Of a DNA stretch of 27,716 nucleotides, positions 173 to 7,874 are shown one piece after another. The stretch lies in the IMG/VR virus record IMGVR_UViG_2534681772_000017. One strand, written 5' to 3'. Under the pieces are notes generated by a model, which did no database searches, was not told the origin of the DNA, and was given only the letters and a program-made list of their open reading frames with translations. The translations under genes were made by a program, and so were the position numbers. Position 1 is the stretch's first letter. Every line of letters begins with the position of its first letter. Source of the DNA: a virus. Taxonomy: Duplodnaviria > Heunggongvirae > Uroviricota > Caudoviricetes.

Positions 173-1222
173 TTATGCAAGCTCTGCCGCCACATTGTCG
201 CCAACATATAGCGACAACGGATTAAGGGTAACAGCTTGCTCAAGATGGTCAGGCGCAAAGTGTGCATACTTCATTGTTTCTCGAATGTTGGCATGTCCGA
301 GTATTTTCTGCAGCACCAGTATATTTCCGCCGTTCATCATAAAATGCGCACCAAAGGTATGACGCAAAACATGAGTCTTCTGCCCTTCCGTCAGCTCAAT
401 GTTCGTAAGCTTGAGCATCTTCTTAAAGTCTTGATAGCAGGGTTTGAACATTCTCCCCTGACGTTCAGACAACTCGTCGTAGAGCCATTTAGGAATCGGA
501 ACCGTGCGATTCTTCTTACCTTTGGTTTTGGTGAAAGTCAGCTTGCATGGGGAAAGTTGGGGACGTGTAAGTCTCTCGGCTTCTCCCCATCGTGCGCCGG
601 TAGCCAAGCAAACCTTAACAATCATCGTAAGATTTTCTTTGCCATATTGTTCACAGGCTCGGAACAGCTCCGGGAGCTGAGACAAAGTTAGCCAGGACAT
701 TTCTTTCTCAGCTTCTTTGAATACGCGAATCCCGTCCAGTGGATTGGGTAAACTCCACTCCCCTAATCGTCGCAGTTCATTGAACACCGCTTCGAGGTAT
801 TGCTGCTCGCGATTGACAGTTATAGGTTTGGCGATCCACTTCGCCGGGTCTTTGTGATAGCCGTTGTCTATTTCGCCACGTAATCGACGGTCACGGTAAT
901 GAGCCCAATCTTTAGCGGTAAGACGAGATGCAATAGGGTCGCCCAACCCATTACATACAATTTGAAGCTTAGCTAACCGCGACTTACTGGCGACCAGCGC
1001 CTGTCCATGTAAATTATGCCAAAGCTGGATAATCTCACTTAAGCGTCGGCGGTCTTCTTTCTTACCGAGCCACGGCTTATCCTCACTCTCATTTTTCGTG
1101 AATGCCTCGAATGCCTCGGCCTCGCCTTTGGTGTTAAACTGTCGACGTATACGCCGCCCCTCCCGGCCATTTGGATAAAGCTCACAGAGCCATTTGCCAT
1201 TTTTCTGCTTACTAACAGTCAT
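173..1222 (-). CDS. int: Tyrosine site-specific integrase, P2/186 type
   Basis: 349-aa ORF with the C-terminal catalytic region of tyrosine recombinases (HVLRHTFGAH ... LGHANIRETMKYAH). Sits at the prophage edge, as in P2/186. SD GGGGTGA upstream of the ATG. Confidence 0.93.
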   Translation of the reverse strand: MTVSKQKNGKWLCELYPNGREGRRIRRQFNTKGEAEAFEAFTKNESEDKPWLGKKEDRRRLSEIIQLWHNLHGQALVASKSRLAKLQIVCNGLGDPIASRLTAKDWAHYRDRRLRGEIDNGYHKDPAKWIAKPITVNREQQYLEAVFNELRRLGEWSLPNPLDGIRVFKEAEKEMSWLTLSQLPELFRACEQYGKENLTMIVKVCLATGARWGEAERLTRPQLSPCKLTFTKTKGKKNRTVPIPKWLYDELSERQGRMFKPCYQDFKKMLKLTNIELTEGQKTHVLRHTFGAHFMMNGGNILVLQKILGHANIRETMKYAHFAPDHLEQAVTLNPLSLYVGDNVAAELA

Positions 1223-1251: not shown

Positions 1252-1656
1252 TTACTGCAAATCTTTCATTGTAGTAACATGCGTGTTCGACAAAATTGTG
1301 ATTTTAGACTGTTCTTCTTGTTCTTCTCCGGCCTTATCACAAGTTGCTTTTGGCTTCTCAAGCACATAACCCATAGCACTAAATTTATTGAGAATTCGAA
1401 CAGATGTAGTGTTTTTCAGATACGCAGTGTTTTCCTTATGTAGCCATGCAGGGGAACAAACGCTATAAACTGCGGTATCATAAATTTCAGGCGTAATACT
1501 TGCGGCATCCAAAACAACTGTAATCACGCCATTACTATCTTTTATCGACAGTGGTTGCATTTCGTTAAAGGATTTCTTCAGTACAGATAAGTTAGAGGGT
1601 TGAGCTGCTACTGTAAAAGAAGCGAGTAAAGCCAGAGCAAAAATAGAACGTTTCAT
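1252..1656 (-). CDS. Small secreted/periplasmic protein of unknown function (candidate lysogeny-expressed moron)
   Basis: Start refined to the internal Met (MKRSIFALALLASFTVAAQ...), which carries a classic Sec signal peptide and an AAGGA SD. The 134-aa product lies between cI and int on the same strand. Locally AT-rich compared with the rest of the prophage. No family recognised. Confidence 0.6.
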   Translation of the reverse strand: MKRSIFALALLASFTVAAQPSNLSVLKKSFNEMQPLSIKDSNGVITVVLDAASITPEIYDTAVYSVCSPAWLHKENTAYLKNTTSVRILNKFSAMGYVLEKPKATCDKAGEEQEEQSKITILSNTHVTTMKDLQ

Positions 1657-1669
1657 TATCGCATCATCC

Positions 1670-2512
1670 TTAGATATGTTTTTCCAGAGTAAATACAACA
1701 GCACCAGATGGTGTGATTTCTGATAGGTTGCATTCAAAATCAACAGACTTATTTGATAGCCTGACTTTATTACCCGGCAGTCGCACAACGTCGAAAACGT
1801 CGAACGCGCCATCTATCCCGATGAGCCAACGGCCATTGCCGATTTTGCATGCTGAATTATCGACAAGCCAAGATGAGCTAACGCCATCTACAAAAACCAA
1901 ATCATCAGAGTTAGCAGGAATCATTGATGGGTCAGGTTGCCAACGCCCAGCGTCTTTTAGCTCACCAGATTCAAGGCGGGATTTTTTTATCGTTAAAATG
2001 TCCGAAAAGCTAGCCTCCTTACTTTCTCGCATTTTCCCCTTTCCGGTCGCTAACCATTCCAGCGATACACCAGTATCAAGCGCGCATGTCACAACCACAT
2101 CACCGGGGAAGAAATCTCGTCTTACCCAGGTGCTGATAGTGCCTGAGGAGATATCCAACAAATCCCCAAGCTCCTTTTGCATTGTAAAACCATAGGCGTC
2201 AAGGATGCGCCTTAAAACAGGTTTTCCACCACTCGCCAAAATCTCGTCATAAAGTGCTTTTCCTTTCAACGGTGACGAATCTTGCAAATTCAAATTGGAA
2301 ATTTGACCAGTCAGCAGCCAGTTTAAATCAGCACCAGTATCTAATGAGCACTGAATGATGGCTTTGCCTGGAAAACTGTTTCGCTGAACCCAAGTGCTGA
2401 CGCTGTTTGACGGGACGCCAAGCACTTCCGCCAAAGCCTTTTGCGTGCTGACACCATACGCCGAACTTATCCGCTCAATCACATCTTGCGTATTCAAATC
2501 TTCATCATTCAT
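1670..2512 (-). CDS. cI: 186-type CI immunity repressor with tandemly duplicated N-terminal HTH domain
   Basis: 280 aa. Two consecutive copies of a Phage_CI_repr-like motif (ISSAYGVSTQKALAEVLGV...STWVQRNSFPG...CSLDTGADLNWLLTG and ILDAYGFTMQKELGDLLDI...STWVRRDFFPG...CALDTGVSLEWLATG), then a roughly 115-aa C-terminal domain. Divergent from the lytic operon, the usual immunity-region layout. Confidence 0.82.
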   Translation of the reverse strand: MNDEDLNTQDVIERISSAYGVSTQKALAEVLGVPSNSVSTWVQRNSFPGKAIIQCSLDTGADLNWLLTGQISNLNLQDSSPLKGKALYDEILASGGKPVLRRILDAYGFTMQKELGDLLDISSGTISTWVRRDFFPGDVVVTCALDTGVSLEWLATGKGKMRESKEASFSDILTIKKSRLESGELKDAGRWQPDPSMIPANSDDLVFVDGVSSSWLVDNSACKIGNGRWLIGIDGAFDVFDVVRLPGNKVRLSNKSVDFECNLSEITPSGAVVFTLEKHI

Positions 2513-2625
2513 TTATCAATCACTCAAAATCGATTTACAGGAACTCATTTTCGATTTAAAGTGGCATTCATCGACCAAGATGCACACCACTGCACTACAT
2601 TTCAAACAACAGGAGATAATGCGAT
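2513..2625. promoter_or_regulatory. Divergent immunity-region promoter/operator (pR/pL-like switch)
   Basis: 113-bp AT-rich gap between the divergent cI and apl-like genes. Contains the 10-bp palindrome AAATCGATTT (2527-2536), a second TCGATTT element 21 bp downstream (2551-2557) and a third TCGA core at 2571-2574. Confidence 0.6.
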
Positions 2626-2997
2626 ATGTCAGATGCAAAATCAATCTCGACGCACGACTCGCAAAACTCACAAAATCAAACTGTGCTGTTAGATCCAACG
2701 CAGTTTGATGCCATCGTTACCGCCATGCTTCCAGCTCTGCAGACAATGATTCGCTCCGCAATGTCCGACACCATGACAGTGAAAGACTTCGCCGCTACTC
2801 GCGGTGTTAGCGAGCGTCTGGTCTGGCAATGGCTCGATGAGGGCATCCTTCTCAAAGCTCCGACCAAAGACTTTTCCAACAAAGAGGAAGCCGCTAAACG
2901 AAGCCGAACCCTCGTAAACGTAAAAGCATGGCGCGATAAGCTGACTCAACAAGCGATTGATTGTCGCTACATCGACCAGCGCACCGCTCTTAACTGA
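2626..2997 (+). CDS. Apl/Cox-like small DNA-binding protein (lytic-switch regulator / excisionase-like)
   Basis: First gene of the rightward operon, divergent from cI. AGGAGA SD 9 nt upstream. Contains a probable HTH segment (TVKDFAATRGVSERLVWQWLDEGIL). Function assigned by position and motif, not strong identity. Confidence 0.5.
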   Translation: MSDAKSISTHDSQNSQNQTVLLDPTQFDAIVTAMLPALQTMIRSAMSDTMTVKDFAATRGVSERLVWQWLDEGILLKAPTKDFSNKEEAAKRSRTLVNVKAWRDKLTQQAIDCRYIDQRTALN

Positions 2998-3029
2998 ATT
3001 TGATTATGCAAGTTAGAGGGAATTTAACC

Positions 3030-3539
3030 ATGTTTGATTTTCAGGTTTCCAAACATCCCCACTATGACGATGCATGCCGCATTTTCGCGCAGCGTCACAA
3101 CATGGCGAAGCTGGCCGAGCGTGCGGGTATGAACGTTCAAACGTTACGTAACAAGCTCAACCCGGAACAGCCTCACCAGTTTACGCCGCCTGAATTGTGG
3201 CTACTGACTGACCTGACCGAAGACTCAACCCTCGTTGATGGTTTTTTGGCGCAGATTCATTGCCTGCCATGCGTGCCGGTTAATGAGCTGGCTAAAGACA
3301 AATTGCAGTCTTATGTCATGCGAGCAATGCGTGAACTCGGCGAGCTGGCGAGCGGTGCGGTATCTGATGAACGTCTGACCTCTGCCCGTAAGCACAACAT
3401 GATTGAAAGCGTTAATTCTGGCATTCGCATGTTGTCGTTGTCGGCGCTGGCGCTGCATGCGCGTCTGCAGACTAATCCCGCTATGTCGAGCGTCGTCGAT
3501 ACCATGAGCGGTATTGGCGCATCCTTCGGGCTGATTTGA
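3030..3539 (+). CDS. cII: Phage regulatory protein CII (186 CII / CP76 family)
   Basis: Start set at MFDFQVSKHPHYDD (SD GAGGGA 8 nt upstream), which closely resembles the 186 CII N-terminus as I recall it. Occupies the expected position after apl. Confidence 0.8.
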   Translation: MFDFQVSKHPHYDDACRIFAQRHNMAKLAERAGMNVQTLRNKLNPEQPHQFTPPELWLLTDLTEDSTLVDGFLAQIHCLPCVPVNELAKDKLQSYVMRAMRELGELASGAVSDERLTSARKHNMIESVNSGIRMLSLSALALHARLQTNPAMSSVVDTMSGIGASFGLI

Positions 3540-7401: not shown

Positions 7402-7435
7402 TTGCCAATACGTGCTACTGTATAAATATACAGTA
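7402..7435 (+). promoter_or_regulatory. SOS-regulated promoter with LexA box
   Basis: TACTGTATAAATATACAGTA at 7416-7435 is a perfect CTGT-N8-ACAG LexA operator. It overlaps an AT-rich -10 region and lies downstream of a -35-like TTGCCA (7402-7407). Directly upstream of the 7455 ORF. Confidence 0.85.
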
Positions 7436-7454: not shown

Positions 7455-7637
7455 ATGGTTGGCGAACATTTCAGCCGAACGCAGCAAAAGTGGGCTTGTG
7501 TGCAATTTATTGCCGAGGTATCTCTGATTGCAAACTGCAAGCCATCAGACTTAAAGCTCGCGCTCACTCTCATTGCAGACCTAGCAAACAGCGAAAATAA
7601 CGAAACCGAAGATGATATTTTTTATAAGGCTGATTAG
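7455..7637 (+). CDS. Small SOS-induced ORF, possible N-terminal part of a Tum-like antirepressor
   Basis: 60-aa ORF with SD GGGAGGGA 5 nt upstream, immediately downstream of the LexA box. Ends at a TAG that is in frame with the DinI-like ORF that follows. Confidence 0.45.
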   Translation: MVGEHFSRTQQKWACVQFIAEVSLIANCKPSDLKLALTLIADLANSENNETEDDIFYKAD

Positions 7638-7640
7638 ATT

Positions 7641-7874
7641 ATGAGAATCAATATCACGTTGGATAAAGAGCAAAAAATTAGTCAGGCAACGTTGGATGCG
7701 CTTGAGGCTGAGCTGTACCGCAATCTGCAACCTATTTACCCAAAGACCGCTATCCGCATTCGCAAGGGCTCCGCAAATGGCGTTGAGCTAAGCGGTTTGA
7801 AACTGGACGAAGATAAAAAACGAGTAATGGAAATCATGCAGCAGGTATGGGAGGACGATAGCTGGTTGCATTAA
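7641..7874 (+). CDS. DinI-family protein (DinI/Tum C-terminal domain-like)
   Basis: 77 aa (MRINITLDKEQKIS...LDALEAELYRNLQPIYP...EIMQQVWEDDSWLH) with the DinI-like pattern of an N-terminal MRIE/N beta strand and an acidic, Trp-containing C-terminal helix. In the same reading frame as the 7455 ORF. Confidence 0.8.
   Translation: MRINITLDKEQKISQATLDALEAELYRNLQPIYPKTAIRIRKGSANGVELSGLKLDEDKKRVMEIMQQVWEDDSWLH

Follow-up and report, generated by a model that had tools for sequence, protein, structure and literature searches.

The window analysed here is the whole stretch of 27,716 nucleotides held in IMG/VR virus record IMGVR_UViG_2534681772_000017, and it opens with the left end of a prophage of the P2 family, 186/PSP3 (Eganvirus) type. 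From left to right, this end carries:

173-1222, minus strand: integrase, leftmost in the gene order
1252-1662, minus strand: small ORF, with counterparts in Midge and SW9 (both phages) that carry the annotation DUF2511 periplasmic protein
1670-2512, minus strand: cI, encoding a protein of 280 aa with Pfam domains
2626-2997, plus strand: cox/apl-like first lytic gene, encoding a protein of 123 aa
3030-3539, plus strand: cII (Pfam Phage_CP76)
further right of cII: gpA-like replication gene

From cI to cII the segment was found to be 89% identical to phages Midge and RCIP0057 and 73–79% identical to phages 613R3, SEN1, SW9, and PSP3. A cluster of proteins identical to the CI of the window occurs on 41 contigs, and one of its members is named as coming from Klebsiella oxytoca. 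A stretch of phage Midge with 89.2% identity to the cox/apl-like gene region is annotated as the transcriptional repressor Cox, and a Pfam search with the 123-aa protein of the window gave no match. The DUF2511-like gene at 1252-1662, on the minus strand between int and cI, is conserved at this place in every PSP3-like phage examined; it is probably a cargo gene expressed during lysogeny (moron).

A consensus-like LexA box (TACTGTATAAATATACAGTA) was identified at 7416-7435, followed by a 60-aa ORF (7455-7637) with no Pfam match and a DinI-family gene (7641-7874). This order matches the split tum arrangement (antirepressor and DinI) reported for PSP3 and Fels-2 (PMC3121763), which suggests that SOS induction of the prophage proceeds via an antirepressor and not by cleavage of CI.

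The CI repressor was found to contain two tandem HTH domains, with Pfam detecting Phage_CI_repr (PF07022) twice together with Phage_CI_C (PF16452). Its parts, all encoded by cI on the minus strand, are:

aa 1-75, nt 2288-2512: HTH1
aa 95-160, nt 2033-2230: HTH2
aa 175-280, nt 1673-1990: CTD

Residues 97-273 are collinear with residues 8-182 of 186 CI (PDB 2FJR), with E = 4e-22. Because this part aligns end to end, HTH2 and the CTD can be regarded as a complete 186-type repressor to which HTH1 has been added as an extra N-terminal copy. Related strings, ATCTTGC(A/G)(A/T)ATTCAAAT, at 2279-2296 and 2483-2500 encode the arm that precedes each HTH (NLNLQD / DLNTQD), suggesting that a trace of the tandem duplication which made HTH1 and HTH2 is preserved at the nucleotide level. 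Related tandem-HTH proteins are numerous (1016 at E <= 1e-10), and at least 26 variants of the HTH1 recognition helix were present among the loci examined. Across nine representative types, identity to the CI of the window was 44–79% in HTH1, 83–94% in HTH2, and 36–77% in the CTD, making HTH2 by far the most conserved part of the protein. The CTD is itself mosaic, as identity to Midge (locus L001) is 88–100% over 1950-2550 (HTH1 and HTH2) and falls to 56–74% over the CTD (1650-1950), which suggests that the oligomerisation domain has been exchanged independently of the DNA-binding domains. A literature search on the tandem-HTH CI architecture or on PSP3-type operators found no paper; in a survey from 2011 the CI of PsP3 is noted only for a longer C-terminal domain (PMC3448106).

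Two promoters were assigned to the region at the start of cI and of the cox-like gene:

2534-2562, plus strand: pR, early lytic promoter (-35 TTTACA, 2534-2539; 17-nt spacer; -10 TAAAGT, 2557-2562)
2616-2644, minus strand: pL, predicted lysogenic promoter for cI (-35 TTGATT, 2644-2639; 17-nt spacer; -10 CATTAT, 2621-2616)

Promoter pR was the only match in a sigma-70-like scan of 2400-2750 (threshold 9/12). Its geometry is the same in all 173 related locus records, and the pR of 186 (TTTACT-17-TATATT) is at the equivalent place. The predicted pL scores 8/12, under the threshold of the scan, and its assignment is positional. In the 186 record the pL -10 is at -10..-5 and the -35 at +13..+18 relative to the apl ATG, and the predicted hexamers of the window fall at exactly these offsets when counted from the cox-like ATG. 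A TTG-type -35 and an nAnnAT -10 are kept at the pL offsets in every type, including those with an unrelated cox. Because the pL hexamers are at the 186 offsets and are kept across types, pR and pL are most likely face-to-face, with ~40 bp between their start sites, which would be near 2569 (pR) and 2609 (pL). The region had originally been described as a divergent promoter region, and the genes are divergent, but positional homology with 186 places the promoters face-to-face, which is the normal arrangement in P2-like phages (PMC7498355) and differs from the divergent layout of lambda.

Between pR and pL there are two TGCAC motifs, at 2581-2585 and 2591-2595, which are 10 bp apart. Related types carry two or three copies of (A/T)GCA(C/G) at 10–11 bp spacing in this interval. 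The inter-promoter block varies with the type of the cox gene (types F and G have ACACC repeats) and not with the CI type, and the TGCAC pair is likely to represent Cox/Apl-like operator repeats, for which it is the candidate in the window.

The original prediction had singled out three elements in this region as possible operators of the lysis-lysogeny switch, and all three are where it placed them, namely the palindrome AAATCGATTT at 2527-2536, TCGATTT at 2551-2557, and a TCGA core at 2571-2574. The TCGATTT copies at 2530-2536 and 2551-2557 are 21 bp apart, with the third TCGA another 20 bp on. The direct repeat is longer than first noted, and the region can be divided as follows:

2522-2540, plus strand: putative operator unit 1 (O-left), ACTCAAAATCGATTTACAG, which contains AAATCGATTT (2527-2536) and overlaps the -35 of pR
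2543-2561, plus strand: putative operator unit 2 (O-centre), ACTCATTTTCGATTTAAAG, filling the pR spacer and reaching the -10
2540-2541, no strand: hypervariable 2-bp linker between the units (GG, CG, CA, TA, AG, GA, or TG in close relatives, with both flanks fixed)
2567-2579, plus strand: TTCATCGACCAAG block with the third TCGA (2571-2574, ~+2 to +5 of pR), a doubtful third operator

Units 1 and 2 are identical at 15 of 19 positions at an offset of 21 bp. None of 2000 mononucleotide shuffles of the region reached the same match, and the best result at other offsets from 14 to 28 was at most 11/19. Within each unit is a 13-mer of the form ACTCA-N3-TCGAT (ACTCATTTTCGAT in unit 2), the centres of which are at 2528 and 2549. 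As direct repeats, the units are asymmetric, and dyad pairing about the 186-equivalent centre is seen at only 3 of 9 positions. The ACTCA of unit 1 (2522-2526) may double as the complement of the cI Shine-Dalgarno sequence.

TCGATTT is also over-represented in the window as a whole (12 copies against 4.4 expected). This enrichment was rejected as an operator signal because every other copy is inside a long ORF: nine further copies are codon-driven, mostly by GAA-ATC-GAC (Glu-Ile-Asp), and the only intergenic ones are the three overlapping copies at 2527-2557.

For comparison, cI-cox spacers were collected from annotated phages, GTDB genomes, IMG/VR contigs, and four Logan/NCBI contigs, giving 173 locus records (some contigs being counted twice) with 26 variants of the HTH1 recognition helix. 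The family with the HTH1 type of the window (A-like) comprises 21 unique sequences, including relatives from Erwinia, Lonsdalea, and metagenomes, and overall CI identity within it is as low as 65–68%. Across these 21 sequences the stretches 2521-2539, 2546-2555, and 2557-2563 are invariant, bar three single-sequence changes in the first of them (T2524C, T2530C, and C2531A, all in unit 1), while 2513-2520 and the linker at 2540-2541 are variable. The palindrome AAATCGATTT was present in 35 of 37 A-like loci and in 0 of 136 others. At the palindrome spot the other types have G(C/T)GAT, GGGTG, TTTTG, GCCAT, or GTAT. The GAT core at 2553-2555, 4-2 nt before the -10, has a different distribution, being found in 123 of 173 records and with many HTH1 types (CGAT in 117/173).

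Among the natural variants of unit 1, C2531A changes the palindrome core to AAATAGATTT and occurs in the closest relative of the window (L024, IMGVR_UViG_2907831671_000003) together with D3G in CI. Another locus, L108, carries the natural operator-core variant AAAACCGATTT (T2530C). The base following the GAT core is usually C in relatives (L006, L031, types A2, B, C, F, H, and others), creating a Dam site, GATC, that abuts the pR -10. The window has GATT at 2553-2556, and types A and D are each polymorphic (T or C) at the last base. Dam could modulate the activity of pR or the binding of the repressor.

Repeats of a similar layout were found with the other repressor types. The best direct-repeat offset was 21–25 bp in 18 of the 26 HTH1 variants, with a different sequence in each, examples being CAAAATTAA-N-TTT-N-GC in type E and AATCCC(C)(A)TAAAGAG in locus L142. 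Some types have clear inverted repeats between the -35 and the -10:

type D: ATCGCA-TT-TGCGAT
type A2: GATCGCA..TTCGATC
type G: ATACA-N4-TGTAT
type H: ATCCATATGGAT
type IX: ATCCA-TT-TGGAT

When the -35 is taken to start at position 1, these dyads are centred at 15.5, or at 16.5 in type G, which has an 18-nt spacer. The middle operator of 186 (ATCTCTCAA/TTGGGAGAT) is also centred at 15.5.

The third TCGA behaves differently from the two units. A-like phages show no variation in its block (2567-2579), but types B, C, and E are polymorphic there, with the sequences TACCGACC (in B), CACCGACC and CATCGGCC (both in C), and CATCAACC, and with ACCGAC, TCGG, and TCAA forms; T2571C occurs naturally in types B and C. 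TCAA is found throughout type E and also in a type B recombinant that has an E-like right half. Types F and G, in which cox and the inter-promoter sequence are different, lack the third TCGA, which is present in 93 of the 173 records overall. As it is polymorphic within repressor types and is lost where cox is different, it travels with the cox side rather than with the CI type. It coincides with the likely start site of pR and may be a weak auxiliary contact for CI at most, the evidence being much weaker than that for units 1 and 2. In this it would be comparable to the poorly defined sites which 186 CI touches beyond its strong operators (PMC3675496). Of the operator set originally put forward, the first two elements are therefore retained, since they cover the -35 and -10 of pR, occupy the interval of the 186 CI sites, and are type-specific, while the third, polymorphic and linked to cox, is doubtful.

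In phage 186 the operators at pR are two helical turns apart, as are adjacent CI dimers on the 14-mer wheel (PMC3675496). The 186 record gives three CI sites within 57 bp that begin at the cI start codon and end 13 bp beyond the -10, and places Apl sites between pR and pL. When the two promoters are aligned by their -35, the middle-operator palindrome of 186 (ATCTCTCAATTGGGAGAT) falls at 2548.5 and a site one spacing to its left at 2527.5. The centres of the 13-mers in the two units, 2528 and 2549, are thus within 0.5 bp of the projected centres. Further likenesses to 186 are a homologous repressor with a wheel-forming CTD (HTH2 and the CTD being collinear with the whole of 186 CI), sites that reach from the start codon of cI over both hexamers (-35 and -10) of a TTTAC(A/T)-17-TA.A.T promoter, two-turn spacing (here 21 and 20 bp), a probable face-to-face layout of pR and pL, the presence of a cII gene, and a LexA-controlled split tum-like pair that points to induction by an antirepressor. 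However, 186 CI has one HTH and inverted-repeat sites, whereas the CI of the window has two tandem HTH domains and asymmetric direct-repeat units. The window also has two well-supported sites against three in 186, and its predicted pR and pL start sites are ~40 bp apart compared with ~62 bp in 186.

On the basis of these sequence comparisons, units 1 and 2 probably serve as CI operators, through which pR of a PSP3-type (186-like) prophage would be occluded, a reading to which we give a probability of about 0.7. CI bound to both units would block RNA polymerase at pR, and the silencing of pR would relieve interference on the weak convergent pL (2644-2616) from which cI would be transcribed, as in 186. 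The 21-bp spacing would reflect the geometry of a CI oligomer like that of 186, with its neighbouring DNA-binding units separated by two helical turns. It had been suggested originally that same-face repeats at this spacing are what a repressor with two tandem DNA-binding domains might recognise. Tandem domains are not needed for this, because the wheel of the single-HTH 186 CI gives the same two-turn spacing and the CI of the window contains a complete 186-CI-like HTH2 and CTD. CI operators of the 186 family placed over pR at two-turn spacing are a known kind of feature. What differs here is the tandem-HTH form of the repressor, the asymmetric direct-repeat units, and indications of a specificity cassette made up of HTH1 and operator DNA.

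A different use of the tandem domains can be envisaged, in which one CI polypeptide spans both repeats, HTH1 contacting the first TCGATTT and HTH2 the second, so that the domains themselves set the 21-bp spacing. This would account for the way in which the element before the -35 varies like HTH1 (TCGAT, GYGAT, GGGTG, TTTTG, GCCAT, and others) while the element before the -10 keeps nGAT(C/T) as HTH2 stays conserved. It also fits the identical cores of the two elements, as the HTH1 recognition helix of the window (PSNSVSTWVQRN) is, of the types compared, the closest to that of HTH2 (SSGTISTWVRRD). Nevertheless, we consider it unlikely, given that two-turn spacing is already present with the single-HTH CI of 186 (PMC3675496) and that the inter-domain linker has only ~20 residues for a span of ~71 A. 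Moreover, the dyad sites of types D, A2, G, H, and IX at each position imply two like domains per site and not one, and types F and G have a common HTH2 recognition helix but a different -10-proximal core (GCGATC vs TGTATC).

It is more doubtful still that no protein binds the repeats and that they arise from promoter hexamers, the cI leader and RBS, the AT-rich composition of the spacer, and a local 21-bp duplication carried with the 5' end of cI. Unit 1 does end in the -35 and unit 2 in the -10, but the repeat register is 21 bp and the promoter hexamers are 23 bp apart. Unit 1 could be held by an RBS constraint, since ACTCA at 2522-2526 complements a possible cI Shine-Dalgarno sequence, and hitch-hiking with the adjoining HTH1 coding region could give type specificity; against this, 2546-2555 is invariant with no known RNA polymerase requirement while 2540-2541 vary, and at the same two positions other immunity types have repeats or dyads that are different but no less structured. 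A repressor of the 186 CI family must also bind at pR, where 186 CI binds. The repeats are very improbable as sites for a Cox/Apl-like recombination directionality factor. Such factors bind direct repeats and repress the switch promoters of P2-like phages (PMC7498355), but their sites are 10–11 bp apart, whereas the units are spaced by 21 bp and show no co-variation with the Cox N-terminus. CI types A, B, and C have unrelated left elements and yet share an identical Cox N-terminus and cox-side inter-promoter DNA, which argues that the units are not Cox sites, and the TGCAC pair, which changes with the cox type, is a better candidate for that role.

If the units are taken as CI operators, the manner in which specificity is divided between them can be approached through a comparison with 613R3, a phage of a heteroimmune type (HTH1 type B). 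Identity between the window and 613R3 is 94–100% from ~2550 rightwards through cox and cII, with 92–100% nucleotide identity in the cox-like gene. In 2250-2550, the stretch comprising HTH1, unit 1, and the left half of unit 2, it drops to 44–62%, and across HTH2 it is 76–86%. The DNA to the right of 2550 is likewise common to PSP3. The junction between the window and 613R3 is sharp and falls at ~2547-2551, within the pR spacer, so that the variable cassette consists of HTH1 and the left operator DNA. By this comparison a shared module runs on to cII and includes the second TCGATTT, the -10, and the third TCGA.

A division of labour in which HTH1 sets immunity and HTH2 reads a common core is suggested by the parallel between the variable HTH1 and the variable left DNA on the one hand and between the conserved HTH2 and the conserved GAT core on the other. 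The ancestral HTH2-CTD part, equivalent to the whole of 186 CI, would then most likely read the widely conserved GAT core near the -10, and the appended, variable HTH1 would give immunity specificity through the type-specific left part, from 2513 to ~2550. This proposal is held loosely, at somewhat less than even odds. HTH1 and unit 1 adjoin, so that their co-variation could be linkage in a recombining cassette; the conservation of HTH2 could reflect a conserved antirepressor target; and the GAT core is often GATC, so that Dam methylation could explain its conservation. Assignment of the half-sites to HTH1 and HTH2 by covariation failed, HTH2 being near-invariant and ACTCA occurring with unrelated HTH1 types, as in the centre operator of L109, which has a quite different HTH1. 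A single-HTH relative from Kluyvera (L023) was rejected as a guide to HTH2 specificity, its switch region not being alignable.

A more speculative extension is that the ~300-bp segment at ~2250-2550, with HTH1 and the left operator, might be a swappable immunity cassette, and that the units might be heterologous bipartite sites read by both CI domains. The constant chassis would, with similar reserve, be made up of HTH2-CTD, the GAT-core half-site, the -10, the pR-pL interval, cox, and cII, and would perhaps serve at least 20 specificity types in Enterobacterales.

Direct repeats at an early promoter are also known from the C operators of P2, WPhi, and P2 Hy dis, where two of them flank or overlap Pe and where the operator sequence differs between heteroimmune phages on near-identical genomes (PMC1904268, PMC1904263). 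The window resembles these in having two direct repeats at the early promoter which differ between immunity types. The repressors are unlike, however, that of the window being of the 186 CI family and P2 C being an unrelated protein of roughly 100 aa with a single DNA-binding domain. In the eukaryotic POU domain, two tethered HTH-type domains recognise a bipartite site. Linked HTH modules in CI could similarly each read part of the composite site ACTCA-N3-TCGAT, although this is a likeness of logic only, without homology.

The 186 switch is among the best quantified genetic switches outside lambda, and only the single-HTH form of its repressor has been studied so far. If the appended domain and the adjoining operator DNA do define immunity, this would explain how heteroimmune phages can exist on a regulatory region of 94–100% identity. 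It would also supply natural orthogonal repressor-operator pairs on a common scaffold and a case in which the accommodation of asymmetric sites by a wheel-forming repressor could be tested. The likely positions of pR, pL, and the operators are now fixed for the annotation of this PSP3-type prophage family.

The reference positions of FL and FR in 186 are distal, ~300 bp to either side. A search of the window for further copies of ACTCA-N3-TCGAT, as at a distal FL-like site, found none beyond chance and no convincing candidate. The string ACTCAACAAGCGAT...CATCGACCA at 2944-2978, in the 3' end of cox, mimics unit 2 and the third block at 26-bp spacing. It was rejected as a distal operator because it is coding (LTQQAIDCRYID), is identical in other CI types (B2 and E), and shows synonymous changes within type A. 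Matches to AACTTG-N6-CAAGTT at 2279-2296 and 2483-2500 were likewise rejected as FL-like sites, as they encode the duplicated NLNLQD / DLNTQD arm of CI.

Just past the cox stop there is an inverted repeat, AATTTG-ATTATG-CAAGTT (2997-3014), which differs in sequence from the FR of 186 and is within 1.5 bp of the FR position as counted from the cII ATG. PSP3 and L026 have a perfect version of this repeat (AACTTG..CAAGTT), and types F and H a recognisable one. The ATTATG at the centre of the repeat in the window complements a -10-like CATAAT, which may belong to pE. The first 28 nt of cII (3030-3057) contain a further inverted repeat, ATGTTTG ... CAAACAT, with its halves approximately two turns apart, and at the equivalent position the 186 record annotates a pE-activating CII binding site.
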